A stretch of DNA of 64,000 nucleotides from Planctomycetota bacterium (GTDB lineage Bacteria; Planctomycetota; SZUA-567; H5-PLA8), in NCBI GenBank assembly GCA_038227875.1, contig JBBRPR010000015.1, positions 95,675 through 159,674 on the forward strand, in the 5' to 3' direction. The notes beneath the pieces are model-generated. The model saw nothing but the letters and a program-made list of their open reading frames with translations. It did not search any database and was not told the DNA's origin. Every line of letters starts with the position of its first letter. The stretch's first letter is position 1. Below, one piece after another: positions 3,684-51,765 of the stretch. The position numbers were made by a program, and so were the translations under genes.

Positions 3684-3727
3684 GCGCTATCCATTAACAT
3701 GGAGCGCGCGGAAAGGAAAGAGTGCTT

Positions 3728-3774
3728 TTGCAGGCGGGACGCCTGCCCCACAATTGCAGGCGTCCCGCCTGCAA
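3728..3774. repeat. REP-like inverted doublet
   Basis: Perfect 19-bp inverted repeat TTGCAGGCGGGACGCCTGC-(9 nt)-GCAGGCGTCCCGCCTGCAA; each arm is itself a hairpin (GCAGGCG-GGA-CGCCTGC). Confidence 0.75.
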
Positions 3775-3779
3775 GTGCT

Positions 3780-3900
3780 GACCTCTGGGCCCCGGGGCCC
3801 AGAGGTCGTGCGAAAATTTTTGCACAGGTCAAAATGACCCTGGTGACCATTGTCACTAGGGTTGGGAACCTGGTATTAAATTTAATACCTGGTTAAAACC
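3780..3900. repeat. Array 1 of fixed-length (18-bp) variable palindromes with conserved 5-bp flanks
   Basis: Cores 3785-3802, 3808-3825, 3841-3858, 3872-3889; flanks GACCT/AGGTC, -/AGGTC, GACCC/GGGTT, AACCT/TGGTT. Confidence 0.85.
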
Positions 3901-3910
3901 AAGCACTCAC

Positions 3911-4834
3911 TCATTTCGCGTGCGTCGTTACAGCTGACTTCGCGTTTAAGAACGATTCGAGATCCGATTCGTTTACGGCTGGCTCGCCGGGGCTGACGTT
4001 GTTCAGCTTGCCGCTCTTCATCCACTCTTCCAGGCGGTCGATTTCGCGGAAGAGGTGATCGAAGCTGTCGGCGACGAAGAGCAGCGGCTGGAAATGATCG
4101 ATTTCGAAATACTGATTCACAACCCATTCGAGCTGAAACGGATAGCGCTGCACCAGCGGCGATTCGATCGCGTGCTCGATTTCCCCGAAGGAACTGAGCA
4201 GACCGCTGCCATACACTTTGAGGTCGCCGTTGTCCTTCATTAGCCCAAATTCAATCGTGAACCAGAAGAAACGCGCCATCGCCTTGATGATGCTTTCGAC
4301 GTGACGGACCTGATCGTGCTTGTCGTCTTTGCCGGCGACGATGTCGGCGGCCGTGTTCGCGACCTCGCCGAAGCGGACCAGCACGTCGGCGAAACGGCGG
4401 TGCGTATGCATCGGCACGTGGCCGGCGACGTCGTGGAAAATATCGGGTTCAGGGAGGTAGTCGAGCGTCTGGTTGTCACGGATGGTGATCGTGGTCGGGA
4501 ATTCGCGGTTGCGCAGGCAATCGAAAAATAAAAACGCCGGGACGTAGCCGCTCACGGCTTTGGCTTTAAATCCACTGAGCGGTTCGAGGAATTTGTTGAT
4601 CTCGTCGAGGTGCGGGATGTTGTTGGGATTGAGCGCGAGGTTGTTGACGCCTTCGAGAAACTGCGAGTGCGCGTACTTTCGCCACTTGGGCAGAATACGC
4701 GCGTAGAGTCCGCGCCACGCCTCCTGATTCGCTTCGCTGTAGAGTTCGTACGGCTGCCGGATGAACAGTGCGCCGTGTTTGCGCTCTTCTTCGATGAACG
4801 GCGCTTTGGTGGTCGTGAGGCCGGGGGCGGTCAT
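3911..4834 (-). CDS. phhA: Phenylalanine 4-monooxygenase (pterin-dependent aromatic amino acid hydroxylase)
   Basis: LDYLPEPDIFHDVAGHVP (Fe-binding His pair), WFTIEFGL, YGSGLLSSFGE. Confidence 0.9.
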   Translation of the reverse strand: MTAPGLTTTKAPFIEEERKHGALFIRQPYELYSEANQEAWRGLYARILPKWRKYAHSQFLEGVNNLALNPNNIPHLDEINKFLEPLSGFKAKAVSGYVPAFLFFDCLRNREFPTTITIRDNQTLDYLPEPDIFHDVAGHVPMHTHRRFADVLVRFGEVANTAADIVAGKDDKHDQVRHVESIIKAMARFFWFTIEFGLMKDNGDLKVYGSGLLSSFGEIEHAIESPLVQRYPFQLEWVVNQYFEIDHFQPLLFVADSFDHLFREIDRLEEWMKSGKLNNVSPGEPAVNESDLESFLNAKSAVTTHAK

Positions 4835-25339: not shown

Positions 25340-25376
25340 CGGGCGGGAGATTCGCAAGAATCTCCCGCCCGTTTCA
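25340..25376 (+). terminator. Intrinsic terminator after rpoC
   Basis: CGGGCGGGAGATTC-GCAA-GAATCTCCCGCCCG followed by TTTC. Confidence 0.85.
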
Positions 25377-37733: not shown

Positions 37734-37821
37734 TGGAATTCCTGCTTTCGAAGAGGAGTCACGATTAAACGTCTCCGCGAAGCGCCTGGACATCCAGGCG
37801 CTTCGCGGCTTTGCCAAACGG

Positions 37822-41001: not shown

Positions 41002-41050
41002 CATTCCCATTCCCCATTCCCCATTCCCCATTCTCCATTCGCCATTCCAT
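41002..41050. repeat. Heptamer tandem repeat (CCATTCC), about 7 units
   Basis: cattcccattccccattccccattccccattctccattcgccattccat directly after the imuB stop. Confidence 0.85.
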
Positions 41051-42663
41051 CACTCGAACACCCCGTGCACAAACCACTGCTCGCTTTCGCGGCTCTGAAA
41101 AATCCAGTACTGAGCCTGGCGTGGTGAGGCAGCGAGATAGTAGTCGCGAGCGATGCCGCCGCGCCACCACCCGGTTTCGATCCGCTCCGGGCCGCTGAAC
41201 GCCGCGATGGGAATGCGTTCGCCTTTCCATTCAAAGCTCTGCGGCGCGGTGTGCTCGTCAGGCCACTCGACGTGAATCGCCGCCGGTTCGGGCAGCAGGT
41301 TGAGCGGCCGGGCGGAGAACTCCGCGCGGGGCGGCCGCGGCTCGGCCTCCTGCGGCGCGCGGTCCTGTTCGCAATCGGCCAGCGCGTAGGCATGCTCCGG
41401 CTGCGCGTCGTCGGCGGGACTGACGCGGAAGACCGAATCGCGGCCGCAGTGCGTGCGGATGCGATCGAGCGTCAGGGCCAGGCCGCTGGGCGCACCGCGG
41501 GGTTTGGAGAAGAGAGCCAGTTGCTCGGCGTTCAGCAGTTCGCTCGACGTCACCCAGACGGAGAGCGCACAGAAGCCGGCGTCGACGTCGATCGTTTTTG
41601 AAAACGCGCCCCCGCTGCCGGTCTGCTTCCCACGCTCCGAGGTGAAGCTCAGATCCTCCAGGCGCGTGCGGACCAGTTGGAGCAGATGTTTTTTCGACGC
41701 GCTGCTGCGGAAGAGATGCACTTCCAGCAGCACCGGTTCGGCCGCTTCGCGGTAGAGCCAGCAGTCGAGCGACCGCGCGCCCCGGCAGCGGCGGTGGAGT
41801 TCCCGGACGACGACGGCCAGGCGCCGCTCCAGCGAATGGAGCAGCAGTTCGCGGTCGGTGATGGGATACTCGAACGACTGCGCCGAATAGACTTCCGGCG
41901 GCGGCCGCAGCCACGGCTGGGTTTCCGGCGCGAGTCCCAGCGCCTGATCGAGCCGCTCGAGCAGTTCTGGACCGAAACGACTGGGCAGTGCGGCGCGCGG
42001 TTGCTTCAGCACATCGCCGATGGTCTGCAGCCCCAGTTTCCCCAGCCACGCGATCGCCGCCGGCGGCAGCCTCAATGCCGAAAGCGCCAACGGTGCCAGC
42101 GCCTCGGCCAGCGCGGAATCGGGAGCTTGCGGCACGACCGTGCGGTGCGGGCCGTAATGCGCCAGCGCCCACGCGGCACCCAGCGTCGGGGCGATCGCGG
42201 CGCGCGCGCGGAGCTGTTGTTGCGCCAGGCTTTTGAGCGCCAGGCTCAGCAGATTCTCTTCGCCGTTGAAAACCTGCTGGCAGCCGGTGATCTCCAGCAG
42301 CAGCGACTGCGGATGTTCGCCGACGCCCGGGCCGCACTGCTCCAGGCCCGTCCACGGCGAGAATCGCCCGGCCCACGCCGCGAGTTTCTCCAACGCGGAA
42401 CGGTCCCGCGCGCGATCGATTTCAGTGACCAGCAGCGGCGGTGCCAGCGCCGTGGCTTCGGAAACGCCCATGCCGCGCAACACGCCCAGCGCACTGGCCT
42501 CAAGCGAACACGCCACCAGCCGCGGACCGTGCGCGCCGCGTTCGTGAACCGCCGCGGGTTTGCCGCGCAGTTCTGGCTCCGTGCGCAAGAGCCGTTGCAT
42601 CGGCCAGCGCGGAAAGTAGAGGCACAAAAAGCGCCGGCAGGAAGGCTGCGACAGCTCGCTCAT
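41050..42663 (-). CDS. imuB: ImuB, catalytically inactive Y-family polymerase
   Basis: LCLYFPRWP, RFSP, LLLEITG, RFGPELLERLDQALG, GPERIETGWW..ARDYY, WFVHGVFE. Confidence 0.9.
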   Translation of the reverse strand: MSELSQPSCRRFLCLYFPRWPMQRLLRTEPELRGKPAAVHERGAHGPRLVACSLEASALGVLRGMGVSEATALAPPLLVTEIDRARDRSALEKLAAWAGRFSPWTGLEQCGPGVGEHPQSLLLEITGCQQVFNGEENLLSLALKSLAQQQLRARAAIAPTLGAAWALAHYGPHRTVVPQAPDSALAEALAPLALSALRLPPAAIAWLGKLGLQTIGDVLKQPRAALPSRFGPELLERLDQALGLAPETQPWLRPPPEVYSAQSFEYPITDRELLLHSLERRLAVVVRELHRRCRGARSLDCWLYREAAEPVLLEVHLFRSSASKKHLLQLVRTRLEDLSFTSERGKQTGSGGAFSKTIDVDAGFCALSVWVTSSELLNAEQLALFSKPRGAPSGLALTLDRIRTHCGRDSVFRVSPADDAQPEHAYALADCEQDRAPQEAEPRPPRAEFSARPLNLLPEPAAIHVEWPDEHTAPQSFEWKGERIPIAAFSGPERIETGWWRGGIARDYYLAASPRQAQYWIFQSRESEQWFVHGVFE

Positions 42664-42669
42664 GACGCA

Positions 42670-43398
42670 TCACGATCCGGCCAGCGCAACAGCCGCCACG
42701 GAAACGTCGGAAACGCCGCAGACAGTGGGAAGCGGAAGCTGCAGTGGAGCAGGGGAGGGCCGCGCCTTGGTCATGCCGCCGCGCACATGCAGCACGTTCA
42801 GCCCGATCGTTCGGCGCGTGCCGATCGAGACGGTCAGCGCGCAAGGTTGCCCGGGTTCCATCACGCGCAACCGCAGCGCCGCCCAGCACGGCTTGCGCAC
42901 GGCGTCGGTCGGGCGGACGAGAAAACCCTGCCCGCCGCCGCGTTCCACCGCGAGTTGGAAGCGGCGGTAGACCATGTTGTCGCCGCTGCGCGTGGCCAGA
43001 AAACTCGCCCCGATTTCCGCGCAGCGCAGCACCTGCGTGAAACACCAGCCAGTCTGCTGCAGCGTCGGGCGGAGCAGGATAAGTCGGCTGAGATCCAGCC
43101 CCAGCGCCATCGCCGCGGGCGGATAGAAGGTGCGATGCGGATCGACCACCGCCCACGCGTTGCCCCGTTCGATGGCGCTCCTGGCGAGCGTCAGCAGCAG
43201 GGTCAGCGCGCCGGCGCCGTCCTCCGCGAGCACCTCCGTCAGCGCTCCCAAGGGCAGTCCGCCGCCGGGAAGAATTTCATCCAACTCCTTGATTTGACTG
43301 GGAATGCAGGCGCGTTGAACGGCCGCAATCCCCTGCCGTTCCAGCCCCTTAATCTGTCCGGCCAGCGTCTCGATCAGCGCGCGTTTGTCGGCATCCAT
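42670..43398 (-). CDS. imuA: ImuA, RecA/SulA-like accessory protein
   Basis: LDEILPGGGLPLGALTEV, FYPPA, RRFQLAVERG; directly upstream of imuB. Confidence 0.88.
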   Translation of the reverse strand: MDADKRALIETLAGQIKGLERQGIAAVQRACIPSQIKELDEILPGGGLPLGALTEVLAEDGAGALTLLLTLARSAIERGNAWAVVDPHRTFYPPAAMALGLDLSRLILLRPTLQQTGWCFTQVLRCAEIGASFLATRSGDNMVYRRFQLAVERGGGQGFLVRPTDAVRKPCWAALRLRVMEPGQPCALTVSIGTRRTIGLNVLHVRGGMTKARPSPAPLQLPLPTVCGVSDVSVAAVALAGS

Positions 43399-43418
43399 GG
43401 CAGATCCCCATCACCTAA

Positions 43419-43435
43419 ATTATACCAAATATGGT
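43419..43435 (-). promoter_or_regulatory. Extended -10 promoter of imuAB overlapped by a palindrome (candidate operator)
   Basis: Minus strand TG-G-TATAAT (43427-43419); ACCA-AATA-TGGT at 43424-43435. Confidence 0.55.
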
Positions 43436-43471
43436 GGGATGCAAGCAGGACTTAATAAAAACCTAAAGTGT

Positions 43472-43687
43472 AAATTCAAAATTCAAAAAAAATTCAAAAA
43501 CGCACGCTCTGGGAAATGGTTTGGGCTGAGTTCCTTGTTTCCCTCGGGAACGAATTCGTTCCCTGGTTAATTTCCAGCATATGGACAGCTGTCCATATGC
43601 TAACCGACCTTGTCGTAAATTTACGACGAGGTCCGCCGCTCATCCATGGCACATCATTTCCCGCGTGTGTTTTTGAATTTTGAATTG
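43472..43687. repeat. Array 2 of 18-bp variable palindromes enclosed by long inverted repeats
   Basis: Cores 43546-43563, 43580-43597, 43611-43628; outer IR aaattcaaaaacgcacgc..gggaaatg / catttccc.gcgtgtgtttttgaattt. Confidence 0.85.
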
Positions 43688-43727
43688 GCCGTTTGACTTT
43701 TCGCTCGCTTCGCCGCTTACTCAACGC

Positions 43728-44270
43728 ATGGCTGGGACACTGACGTTGATTCTCGGTGGCGTGCGCAGCGGCAAAAGTTCTCATGCGGAGAAACTGGCGG
43801 CGGCGCATGGCGGGCAGGTGCTGTACGTCGCCACCGGCGAGCCGCACGATGAAGAGATGGCCGAGCGGATTCGCAACCACCGCGCGCAACGACCGGCGGA
43901 GTGGACAACGCTGGAAGCGCCAACGCGCACCGGCAACGCCATCGCCGCCTTCAAGCCCGAACCAGCCGTGATTCTGCTCGATTGCATGACCCTGCTGGCC
44001 GGCAACGCGATGGCCGTGCTCAGCGAGCCGTACTCCTCCAACACGGCCGAAAATCTCGTCCAGATGGAGGTCACCCGTCTGCTGGACGCACAGCGCGCGA
44101 GTTCCGCCGACTGGCTGATCGTCAGCAACGAAGTCGGCCTCGGCGTCGTGCCGCCCTATCCGCTCGGCCGCGTCTATCGCGACGCACTCGGACGCGCCAA
44201 CCAAAGCCTCGCCGCCGCCGCCGACACCGTGCTCTTCATGATCGCGGGTATTCCGATGAAGGTTAAATAG
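43728..44270 (+). CDS. cobU: Bifunctional adenosylcobinamide kinase / cobinamide-phosphate guanylyltransferase
   Basis: LILGGVRSGKSSHAE, YVATG..DEEMAERI..H..RP..W.TLE, VSNEVGLGVVP, RD.LG.ANQ. Confidence 0.93.
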   Translation: MAGTLTLILGGVRSGKSSHAEKLAAAHGGQVLYVATGEPHDEEMAERIRNHRAQRPAEWTTLEAPTRTGNAIAAFKPEPAVILLDCMTLLAGNAMAVLSEPYSSNTAENLVQMEVTRLLDAQRASSADWLIVSNEVGLGVVPPYPLGRVYRDALGRANQSLAAAADTVLFMIAGIPMKVK

Positions 44271-51673: not shown

Positions 51674-51748
51674 AATTTTTAATTTTGAATTTTTAATTTT
51701 GAATTGAGGTCGCTGCGGCAACAATTCATAATTAAGAATTAAGAATTC
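51674..51748. repeat. AT-rich inverted heptamer array (AATTTTK / AATTAAG)
   Basis: aatttttaattttgaatttttaattttgaattg ... caattcataattaagaattaagaatt between convergent genes. Confidence 0.8.
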
Positions 51749-51765
51749 TAAATTCTTTAATACGG

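Follow-up and report, generated by a model that had tools for sequence, protein, structure and literature searches.

Two genome-wide repeat families meet in the imuA-cobU spacer of a planctomycete, one of them sharing its frame with palindromes inside ParB-like genes

The window analysed here is a stretch of 64,000 nucleotides from a Planctomycetota bacterium, in which an imuA-like gene (42670..43398, minus strand; weak RecA-family Pfam match) and cobU (43730..44270, plus strand; Pfam CobU, 6.5e-57; ORF open from 43680, likely ATG at 43730) are both transcribed away from the spacer that separates them. An imuB-like gene for a Y-family polymerase (41050-42663, from Pfam and ORF data) follows the imuA-like gene. 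The spacer holds three palindromic units, found where the initial annotation had located their cores and with the 34 and 31 bp centre spacing that it had reported. Unit 1 (43542..43567) has a 26-bp frame, degraded at its left end, around a perfect 18-bp core (43546-43563) with the central 12-mer AACGAATTCGTT, and its intact 26-bp form is present at two other loci (C20 and C30). Unit 2 (43576..43601) is a perfect 26-bp palindrome with AGC...GCT ends and the central 12-mer GGACAGCTGTCC, and unit 3 (43606..43633) is a 28-bp palindrome with one T/G mismatch, which contains the 26-bp frame ACC...GGT at 43607-43632 and the central 12-mer CGTAAATTTACG, its closest copies differing at one position. 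The class of each unit comprises 5 copies. Only four perfect palindromes with arms of at least 9 were found in the 64-kb window, all of them at this spacer or at the locus that had been described first (locus 1, 3711..3917), where units with the same frame occupy 3781-3806, 3837-3862 and 3868-3893 next to other hairpins; moreover, 8 windows of 26 bp had at least 11 of 13 pairs, whereas 30 shuffles averaged 1.2 (maximum 4). The GACCT/AGGTC and TGGTT flanks said to be common to both loci are real and correspond to the ACC...GGT frame that is conserved throughout a 26-bp family found across the genome.

An inverted repeat does enclose the three units, as had been noted, but its arms are longer than the estimated 35 bp or so: they extend over about 43458-43523 and 43650-43701 and pair in three segments of 19 nt (95% complementary), 32 nt (78%) and 13 nt (85%). 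A long stem crowned by three hairpins, the structure originally envisaged, was predicted with RNA parameters for the plus strand (-104.7 kcal/mol, z -10.0) and the minus strand (-94.8 kcal/mol, z -7.5) and with DNA parameters (-57.2 kcal/mol, z -9.1), and in each case none of 200 shuffles folded as well.

Rather than a local operator array, the locus is a combination of two repeat families that are spread over the genome, called T (the outer arms) and P (the palindromes). The left terminal T arm (43466..43507, plus strand), a family member by sequence, consists of AATTCAAA-type heptads followed by an A-run and half of a GC stem, and pairs with 43663-43692, the right terminal arm, which lies in inverted orientation (minus strand) and matches C15:139335-139351 with 1 mismatch. 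Between the arms and the palindromes lie a left inner backbone (43508..43541, plus strand), whose segment 43511-43523 pairs with 43650-43662, and the shortened remnant of a second conserved interior T module (43634..43662, plus strand; ...CTCATCCATGGCAC...). A short linker (43568..43575, plus strand), part of ...CTGGTTAATTTCCA..., separates units 1 and 2. The whole locus aligned over its full length with C17:42550-42920, C70:16300-16630 and C19:49990-50310, in identical module order. It belongs to both families and is homologous to the other composites; the four-composite alignment shows the left backbone to be homologous to its counterpart in the other three, covers the remnant module, shows the linker to be conserved and places a different apex at the position of unit 2 in the other copies. 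Positions 43466-43692 are a single copy of a composite non-coding repeat of about 227 bp. The earlier idea of a carrier of palindromic units thus gained substance, since the outer arms are a multi-copy inverted-repeat family and carrier plus palindromes recur together at three other loci with the order kept.

The T element is lineage-specific. Its 17-mer core (allowing 1 mismatch) had 46 occurrences in this genome (G000) and 0-1 per genome in 40 relatives; a reversed control gave 0. Each element has two inverted terminal arms made of A/T heptads, an A-run and a GC stem half, and 11 inverted pairs were found to bound 104-307 bp of interior that varies widely from copy to copy. For 39 of 57 arms, the outer neighbour is a co-oriented gene whose end falls a few tens of bases short of the arm, and the element as a whole reads like a bidirectional-terminator hairpin. 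Inspection by eye of the 11 paired elements revealed no target duplication, and no partner transposase with ends like those of T was found. The outer arms of locus 1 are of a different kind and not T-type. As for the history of the spacer itself, a protein-guided scan for imuA in JGI metagenome contigs returned one distant locus (30% identity), and contigs of four runs contained short pieces of a relative about 93% identical, none of which bridged the imuA-cobU spacer; no empty site was found. One joint, 'skip 43514>43671', is not assignable to this locus because its 20-nt side lies within the repeated arm.

The P units are strictly 26-bp palindromes, present in a few hundred copies in this genome, with an ACC...GGT frame, a centre that is mostly AATT and 8 variable intervening pairs. 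The frame ACC-N8-AATT-N8-GGT was counted 178 times, against 0 in a reversed control and 0-8 in 60 relatives. Depending on the criterion, tallies ranged from 178 to 227 units of 26 bp, the comparison of cores below being based on 225 units and the count of genomic contexts on 242 loci. The genome contains 217 perfect palindromes with arms of at least 10 and 117 with arms of at least 13, where base composition predicts about 13 and 0.2, and the length is fixed, since 195 framed hairpins measured 26 bp versus 1-14 at each of 24, 25 and 27-30 bp. By context, 126 of the 242 loci are tandem, 51 convergent and 29 divergent, and 33 fall inside crude gene calls (209 lie outside them). Within tandem spacers the upstream stop codon is the nearer gene end in 88 cases versus 38, at a median of 36.5 nt; this bias fits REP-like 3' elements at least as well as it fits sites on which a protein docks. 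Units are clustered, 45 of 66 adjacent pairs being 26-41 bp apart, and array spacing peaked broadly at 31-37 bp without the clear 10.5-bp periodicity expected of helical phasing. Their flanks are rich in T upstream and in A downstream, where an intrinsic terminator has the reverse arrangement, and a tally of the eight commonest centres gave 146 of 195, or about three quarters, as self-complementary.

It had been proposed that the symmetry of the units is actively maintained. This was overstated, as 118 of the 178 framed units have one or more of the 8 variable pairs mismatched (60, 52, 34 and 20 units have 0, 1, 2 and 3 mismatches, respectively); what does hold is that the two arms of a given unit resemble each other far more closely than do arms taken from different units, for which the mean difference is 4.67 of 8 positions. 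No shared family was visible, from N-termini compared by eye, among 8 genes with P units on both sides. The genome has 8 Y1_Tnp matches, and the RAYT-like genes are flanked by other inverted repeats; neither P-family units nor T arms were found within 3 kb of 7 of these loci (one unrelated 16-bp palindrome lies inside the match at L005), and a RAYT link was rejected on these grounds. Integron attC sites were likewise discarded, the P units being too short for the dimensions generally known for attC. A degenerate P pattern searched across 185,579 species gave 41 matches, all palindromic in the free positions. We make no cross-domain claim of a universal palindrome from these, at least one match (a Bacteroidaceae locus, L033) being an ordinary terminator hairpin by eye; nor could the cyanobacterial matches be demonstrated to involve homologs of the ParB-like proteins described next (pairwise E 0.16).

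The palindromes also have a wider match, missed at first because it lies outside the window, namely sites within an expanded family of ParB-like genes. This genome encodes about 13 solo paralogs of a ParB/Noc/KorB-like protein: a protein query gave 15 matches in it, and matches in only 4 of 150 other sampled Planctomycetota genomes, and a profile search recovered 18 ORF pieces at about 13-14 loci. Pfam gave no match for the paralog at E 0.01, and a PHROG ParB-like family matched at 8e-17. An AF2 model (pLDDT 81, residues 142-152 disordered) had as best Foldseek matches ParB, Noc, KorB and Spo0J-parS structures (E 1.5e-5 to 3.5e-4), and the paralogs are accordingly predicted to consist of a ParB N-terminal domain followed by an HTH DNA-binding domain. 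Of the two CTP-pocket motifs, GxxR reads GRHR, with G73 and R76 invariant in 26 homologs, and the box III motif reads KENQR/ENQR, one residue short of ENxxR. The genes have no neighbours in common and possess their own conserved promoter cassette.

Within each paralog gene, the stretch coding for the disordered, hypervariable linker immediately ahead of the HTH contains a P-type 26-bp palindrome of the gene's own. At all 14 loci of this genome that cover the linker, the best 26-bp palindrome lies there (8-12 of 13 pairs), and in six full-length genes the sole windows, out of 159 segments, with at least 11 of 13 pairs are at that spot. Paralogs align at 88% in nucleotide sequence across promoter and N-terminal domain, and this homology breaks off just ahead of the palindrome and HTH. 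Outside this genome the linker palindrome was found in 9 of 13 homolog genes examined, homologs in other phyla included. In G206, which has 21 framed units (control 1), three paralogs each have their own AAATTT-centred intragenic palindrome; in G210, with only 1 framed unit genome-wide, 3 of 3 paralogs have distinct perfect 26-bp palindromes; and the palindrome is present in 1 of 1 paralogs of G141, 1 of 2 of G208 and 1 of 2 of G086. Distant homologs in G113 and G137 showed no palindrome, and G003 has 6 P-like framed hairpins yet no homolog at E 1e-4.

The P units share frame, length and many cores with these intragenic sites. The central 12-mer of 75 of the 225 units is common to a paralog site (control mean 33.8, sd 14.7; 4 of 2000 resamplings reached 75), 21 of the 225 have an identical inner half-site versus 0.3% in the control, and the 12-mers of abundance ranks 1, 2, 5, 6 and 8 are those of paralog sites. 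The remaining 150 units have a central 12-mer not common to any recovered paralog site, among them the classes GGCCACGTGGCC and GGCCAATTGGCC (14 copies each) and the three of the imuA-cobU locus (AACGAATTCGTT, GGACAGCTGTCC and CGTAAATTTACG), whose half-sites depart from the nearest one of a paralog at 2-3 of 10 positions. The central 12-mers come in 72 distinct forms versus only about 10 distinct paralog sites, so that one protein per site type would require either degenerate recognition or paralogs missing from the assembly; completeness of the genome is 88%, and contig ends cut across 4 of the paralog loci or lie right at them. Clean covariation of HTH and half-site was not seen among 11 paralogs: C27 and C32 have a palindrome in common and different HTHs, and C11 and C27 have an HTH in common and different palindrome apices.

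From these correspondences in sequence, we favour, with a probability of about one half, the reading that the P units are docking sites for the paralogs, comparable to parS, OB or NBS. The roughly 13 solo ParB/Noc/KorB-like proteins would dock on P units, arrays would bring differing site types next to one another, and the carrier element, as it was copied, would have taken entire arrays to further intergenic positions. A more elaborate version, which we offer tentatively, is a combinatorial multi-ParB system in which about a dozen diversified chromosomal ParB/KorB-like clamps, each specified by the 26-bp palindrome of its own gene, load at intergenic arrays, hundreds in number, in which sites of different paralogs adjoin and which are duplicated on the terminator-like carrier repeat. 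No description of such an arrangement of T, P and ParB-like genes was found in the open-access literature searched.

Explanations centred on the spacer itself fit poorly. The element does sit in a divergent promoter region, and each palindrome could in principle be the operator of a separate regulator of imuA/imuB or cobU, a reading we regard as extremely improbable given that P units and the entire composite recur at many unrelated loci, and that 0 of 4 imuA orthologs in relatives have such palindromes upstream, having instead another short motif in common that adjoins the imuA start. It does not regulate either imuA or cobU, and its proximity to SOS genes is best taken as coincidental, as had been suspected. 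It is also decidedly improbable that this is a structured non-coding RNA gene or a bidirectional terminator or insulator with the hairpins as RNA helices: the predicted fold is very stable on both strands, the T arms have the A-run, GC stem and T-run of a terminator just after stop codons in most cases, and one terminator-like match falls on unit 1, but with both flanking genes pointing away there is no transcript to terminate here. Furthermore, no Rfam 15 family matched (best E 0.8; best scores 21.1 and 16 bits, where the gathering scores are 70 and 113), a search of 43350-43780 gave no sigma-70-like promoter, and the palindromic loop centres and the strand symmetry of the units suggest that the constraint acts on DNA. 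Coverage in one RNA run amounted to 148 nt of imuA, part of the gene only.

Two other accounts address the family as a whole. P units might be REP/BIME-like repeats, selfish or acting in RNA as 3'-end hairpins that stabilise or punctuate transcripts, without a ParB-kind partner, able to spread, kept symmetric by hairpin-templated repair and present inside the ParB-like genes through secondary invasion of a permissive disordered linker. This account, doubtful as we judge it, agrees with the intergenic, clustered distribution of the units, their closeness to upstream stop codons, a mismatch spectrum that resembles decay, the likeness of arms within a unit and the predicted disorder and hypervariability of the host linker, and untagged REP-like families are described in the available text of PMC3733652. 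Against it, the intragenic palindrome keeps the same gene position and 26-bp length in homologs of genomes lacking P amplification (G210 and G141), which makes repeated independent invasion unlikely; the flank bias is opposite to that of a terminator, a GTAG or CGTC tag is absent, the RAYT-like genes have other repeats around them and no P unit nearby, and self-complementary centres are not needed in an RNA hairpin. Alternatively, the paralogs could mobilise the units in a REPIN-RAYT-like manner, a ParB/Srx-fold N-domain nuclease or HTH targeting copying each palindrome type into new intergenic sites. Having a palindrome type in each paralog, paralog matches to the most abundant 12-mer classes, joint expansion of P units and paralogs in G000 and G206 and solo genes with their own promoter cassette would all suit such a mechanism; the palindrome, however, lies within the gene, whereas REPs flank a RAYT gene, neither a target duplication nor a footprint was observed, and the fold matches CTP-clamp ParBs with a conserved GxxR, which leaves this idea improbable. 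We know of no ParB-fold protein that transposes DNA.

Docking sites for ParB-like proteins have parallels in known systems. KorB and Noc have many palindromic sites per replicon. BisD of ICEclc is, in the available text of PMC12409273, a ParB-like CTP clamp that loads at a 23-bp palindrome, bisS, located within the genes inrR and ssb. As in KorB-OB (RK2), Noc-NBS (Bacillus) and BisD-bisS, the paralogs described here have a predicted ParB N-domain and an HTH, and the sites are palindromic, many per replicon and, as with bisS (PMC12409273), in part inside genes. Unlike these systems, which each have one protein, this genome has its dozen or so solo chromosomal paralogs; the sites number in the hundreds, measure 26 bp and fall into many distinct types, differing types are packed 26-41 bp apart, sometimes on a second repeat, and each gene holds its own site in the linker-coding segment. 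The T element resembles MITEs and elements of the Correia type, as the latter are generally known, in its conserved inverted ends, its length of 104-307 bp, its tens of copies and its restriction to one lineage; it differs in that no target-site duplication was visible in the 11 pairs and no matching transposase was found, in interiors that vary widely and in ends made of an A-run, stem and T-run that usually abut stop codons. Those ends fit the pattern and position of an intrinsic bidirectional terminator, whereas the flank bias of P is the reverse. P units resemble the REP/BIME and REPIN-RAYT repeats (PMC3733652; see also 10.1101/2021.07.10.451892 and PMC8266576) in being short, palindromic, high-copy and intergenic, mostly near gene 3' ends, in mosaic arrays, with lineage-specific amplification and several sequence classes per genome. 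REP elements have a conserved unpaired GTAG or CGTC tag at one end according to the available text of PMC3733652; P units, unlike them, are untagged, strand-symmetric true palindromes of fixed length, and the candidate partner has a predicted ParB fold and a site inside its gene.

These results spare the palindromes between imuA and cobU a mis-annotation as SOS or cobalamin operators, and they account for assembly breaks of this lineage at ParB-like genes. If the paralogs do dock on P units, the genome would hold a ParB-type site repertoire that ranks, among those known to us on bacterial chromosomes, with the largest and most diversified, and there would be a concrete protein partner for untagged palindromic repeats, the origin and role of which are raised as an unsettled matter of REP research in the available text of PMC3733652. 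ParB-type specificity could then diversify within one genome through a linked site-plus-HTH module. Were the combinatorial system also true, parS-like repeats would organise the chromosome, or punctuate transcription, at the scale of the whole genome, and site and HTH would diverge jointly as a module of specificity.

A read of the sequence from 43200 to 43950, combined with a repeat search, located three palindromes in the spacer between the imuA-like gene and cobU: unit 1, whose core is a perfect 18-bp palindrome (43546-43563), unit 2, a perfect 26-bp palindrome (43576-43601), and unit 3, a 28-bp palindrome that is perfect except for one T/G mismatch (43606-43633). Their centres lie 34 and 31 bp apart, and all three are enclosed by a long imperfect inverted repeat (~43458-43523 versus 43650-43701). 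The predicted single-strand fold is one long stem topped by three hairpins, with energies of -104.7 kcal/mol (z -10.0) for RNA of the + strand, -94.8 kcal/mol (z -7.5) for RNA of the - strand and -57.2 kcal/mol (z -9.1) with DNA parameters; in each case, 0 of 200 shuffles was as stable as the native sequence. The palindromes, their spacing and the enclosing arms with their three-hairpin stem, all described in the initial annotation, were thereby confirmed. The flanking genes point away from the element, the imuA-like gene on the - strand (242 aa, with a weak match to RecA; a gene for a Y-family polymerase comes next) and cobU on the + strand. Perfect palindromes with arms of at least 9 numbered four in the whole 64-kb window, two at this locus and two at locus 1 (3711-3917), and eight 26-bp segments had at least 11 of 13 positions paired, compared with a mean of 1.2 and a maximum of 4 in 30 shuffles. 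Locus 1, a mosaic array, lies between a galK-like gene and one resembling aromatic-amino-acid hydroxylases. It comprises three units of the ACC...GGT frame, a hairpin with a 19-bp stem (3728-3774) and a palindrome of 18 bp (3808-3825), and its outer arms of 17 nt are of a different type from those of the imuA-cobU element. Three other 26-bp near-palindromes (25343-25368, 37779-37804 and 51733-51758; 11-12 of 13 pairs) lack this frame and are probably ordinary hairpins.

When the locus was compared by BLAST with its own assembly (9.34 Mb, 176 contigs, 88% complete), the arms were found to recur throughout the genome. The 17-mer core of this arm family, hereafter T, occurred 46 times with at most 1 mismatch, compared with 0 for the reversed control in the same genome and 0-1 in each of 40 relatives. 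Common to the T copies are A/T heptads, an A-run and one half of a GC stem. Eleven inverted arm pairs bound elements of 104-307 bp, with no target duplication seen by eye in any of the 11. Their interiors vary by copy: some are near-empty, amounting to a plain hairpin of A-run, stem and T-run, some contain palindrome arrays, and about 15 contain a second conserved module. This module (~90 nt at ~15 loci, e.g. C38:3528-3707 and C4:42717, starting with ...GGTGCCA.GGATGCG...) is often present as an inverted pair, and a mere remnant of it is left in the window copy. In 39 of 57 cases, the gene lying outward of the T arm was co-oriented and stopped a few tens of bases short of the arm, indicating that the T carrier usually begins directly after a stop codon.

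The window element aligned end to end with three further loci (C17:42550-42920, C70:16300-16630 and C19:49990-50310), and all four composites, of which the window copy is the shortest, share the module order left arm, backbone, palindromic units, conserved linkers, second module and right arm. Palindromic units at homologous positions differ through symmetric changes of the apex, as in unit 3, which reads ...GTCGTAAATTTACGAC... in the window versus ...GTCGACCATGGTCGAC... in the C17 copy. The earlier proposal of a carrier of palindromic units was thus borne out, the arms being a repeat family and the composite recurring at three more loci. The window locus is one copy of a two-family composite repeat, and since only 19 of 227 near-perfect palindromic units (P units) had a T arm less than or equal to 400 bp away, the T and P families that it combines are independent.

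The genome contained 217 perfect palindromes with arms of at least 10 and 117 with arms of at least 13, compared with about 13 and 0.2 expected from base composition by our own calculation. P units begin with ACC, end with GGT and are mostly centred on AATT; ACC-N8-AATT-N8-GGT occurred 178 times (reversed control, 0) and 0-8 times in each of 60 relatives, a tally that takes in one unpublished genome (G017) on which no result depends. Their length is fixed, with 195 framed hairpins of 26 bp and 1-14 at each of 24, 25 and 27-30 bp; unit 1 belongs to this family despite its degraded left end, intact versions being found at two other loci. Mismatches in the 8 variable pairs were absent from 60 units, and 52, 34, 20 and 12 units had 1, 2, 3 and at least 4, respectively, while arms taken from different units differed at a mean of 4.67 of the 8 positions. 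The suggestion that symmetry is actively maintained therefore went too far: symmetry is strongly favoured, but it is not absolute. According to crude, purpose-made gene calling (6367 genes), 126 of 242 P loci were in tandem spacers, 51 in convergent spacers, 29 in divergent ones (a minority including the window locus), 33 within genes and 3 at the edges of contigs. Of the tandem set, 88 versus 38 lay closer to the upstream stop codon, with a median of 36.5 nt.

A search of 185,579 species with a degenerate P pattern returned 41 loci, all 41 palindromic at the free positions and several inside HTH-encoding genes. One such gene of this genome (C31:44231-45286) encodes a protein with 15 matches in the same genome, whereas of 150 other sampled genomes of Planctomycetota only 4 had any; a profile search recovered 18 ORF pieces at ~13-14 loci, 4 of them broken by contig ends. 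Pfam gave no hit for the paralog at E 0.01, and in PHROGs the matches were to a family without a name (7e-26) and to 'ParB-like partition protein' (8e-17). An AlphaFold2 model built from 26 homologs (pLDDT 81) predicted a ParB N-domain, then a disordered stretch (residues 142-152), then an HTH domain and lastly a small domain at the C-terminus, and its top Foldseek ranks were ParB, Noc, KorB and Spo0J-parS structures (E from 1.5e-5). The DNA of the disordered stretch was a P-type 26-bp palindrome (8-12 of 13 pairs) in 14 of 14 loci covering it, differing from locus to locus (e.g. CAGGCAAATTTGCCTG, CATATGGTAAATTTACCATATG, ATGGGGAAAATTTTCCCCAT, GCCGCCAATTGGCGGC, GTGGTTGCAAATTTGCAACCAC), and among 159 segments of six full-length genes, windows with at least 11 of 13 pairs occurred only at that spot. 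The peptide there is hypervariable and the N-domain nearly invariant; nucleotide homology among paralogs (80-88%, including ~190 bp of promoter region) stops just before the palindrome and HTH. No neighbouring genes were common to the paralogs. Short TGATGAA-type repeats follow several of them, and two (C15:40521-41645 and C14:65917-66984) carry PEPVEGAC-like N-terminal low-complexity repeats.

Similar genes were found elsewhere. In a Bacillota MAG (G210), 3 of 3 paralogs had a perfect 26-bp palindrome of their own at this gene position, and palindromes were present in 1/1 homologs of G141, 1/2 of G208, 1/2 of G086 and 0/2 of G113/G137; with the G206 paralogs included, 9 of the 13 homolog genes from outside the window genome had one. 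G206, labelled Terriglobia, held 21 framed units in a few classes (control, 1) and three paralogs each bearing its own AAATTT-centred intragenic palindrome, which points to horizontal spread or a binning problem; its ParB-like paralogs, counted as 3-4, are 44-51% identical to the query protein. For the cyanobacterial pattern hits, homology to the ParB-like protein could not be demonstrated, and G003 had no homolog at E 1e-4 despite six P-like framed hairpins; both results count against a link between P units and the ParB-like proteins. P units are the same kind of sequence as the intragenic palindrome of the ParB-like clade, across phyla, and in the window genome they partly match the paralog sites. 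The central 12-mer was the same as that of a paralog site in 75 of 225 P units outside the paralog genes (control mean 33.8, sd 14.7; 75 reached in 4 of 2000 resamplings), and 21 of 225 had an identical 10-nt inner half-site, versus 0.3% in a control. A paralog was present for the classes ranking 1, 2, 5, 6 and 8 in abundance; classes of 14, 14, 8, 6 and 6 copies, and the three classes at the window locus (5 copies each), had none.

Several other explanations for the palindromes were considered. Their neighbourhood with SOS genes had been thought possibly coincidental, and this was supported: in four relatives whose imuA orthologs are 48-54% identical, such palindromes were absent upstream of the gene in all four, which disfavours operators kept at this position, and the locus is unrelated to imuA or cobU regulation. 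A short T/A-rich motif (...ACCTAAATTATACCAAATATGG..., 43405-43440) adjoining the imuA start outside the repeat element, with look-alikes directly upstream of imuA in 4 of 4 relatives examined, is a candidate for the SOS (LexA) box or the promoter of the imuA-imuB operon; as an SOS box it is a better candidate than the palindromes. An Rfam search matched no family. Intrinsic termination was disfavoured for the P units, whose flanks are T-rich upstream and A-rich downstream and whose centres are self-complementary in about three quarters of cases, a feature that is dispensable in an RNA hairpin. This genome also has numerous ordinary hairpins with loops of the GNRA type; 11-bp stems abound in it whatever the loop size (240-529 for each loop length of 3-8 nt), and many of the loops are of the GAAA/GCAA type. 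RAYT-linked REPs were likewise discarded, because P units and T arms are absent within 3 kb of the Y1-transposase genes at the 7 loci examined, where other inverted repeats flank these genes, and P units lack the GTAG or CGTC tag described as typical of REPs (PMC3733652). The four intact IS200/RAYT-like genes (L001-L004; C72:36218-36556, C9:158303-158644, C79:279-614 and C3:47816-48160) are each flanked by ~90-130 bp inverted repeats containing a TTGTCC...GGACAA hairpin, a separate low-copy system of 8-12 hairpin copies.

Under the preferred reading, the palindromes would be parS-like docking sites of the ParB-like paralogs, with site and HTH diverging jointly as a specificity module. Its chief competitor sees them as a hairpin repeat of the REP/BIME kind, which invaded a permissive linker in ParB-like genes. 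That view is favoured by the preference of P units for gene 3' ends and by the many classes lacking a recovered paralog site; against it, the position and 26-bp length of the palindrome are conserved in genomes without amplified P units. The closest worked example for such docking sites is BisD-bisS of ICEclc, in which BisD is described as a ParB-like CTP clamp that loads at bisS, a 23-bp palindrome located within genes, and as acting at a distance (PMC12409273). Arrays such as that of the window locus would then put the sites of several paralogs side by side, and may have spread through copying of the T element.
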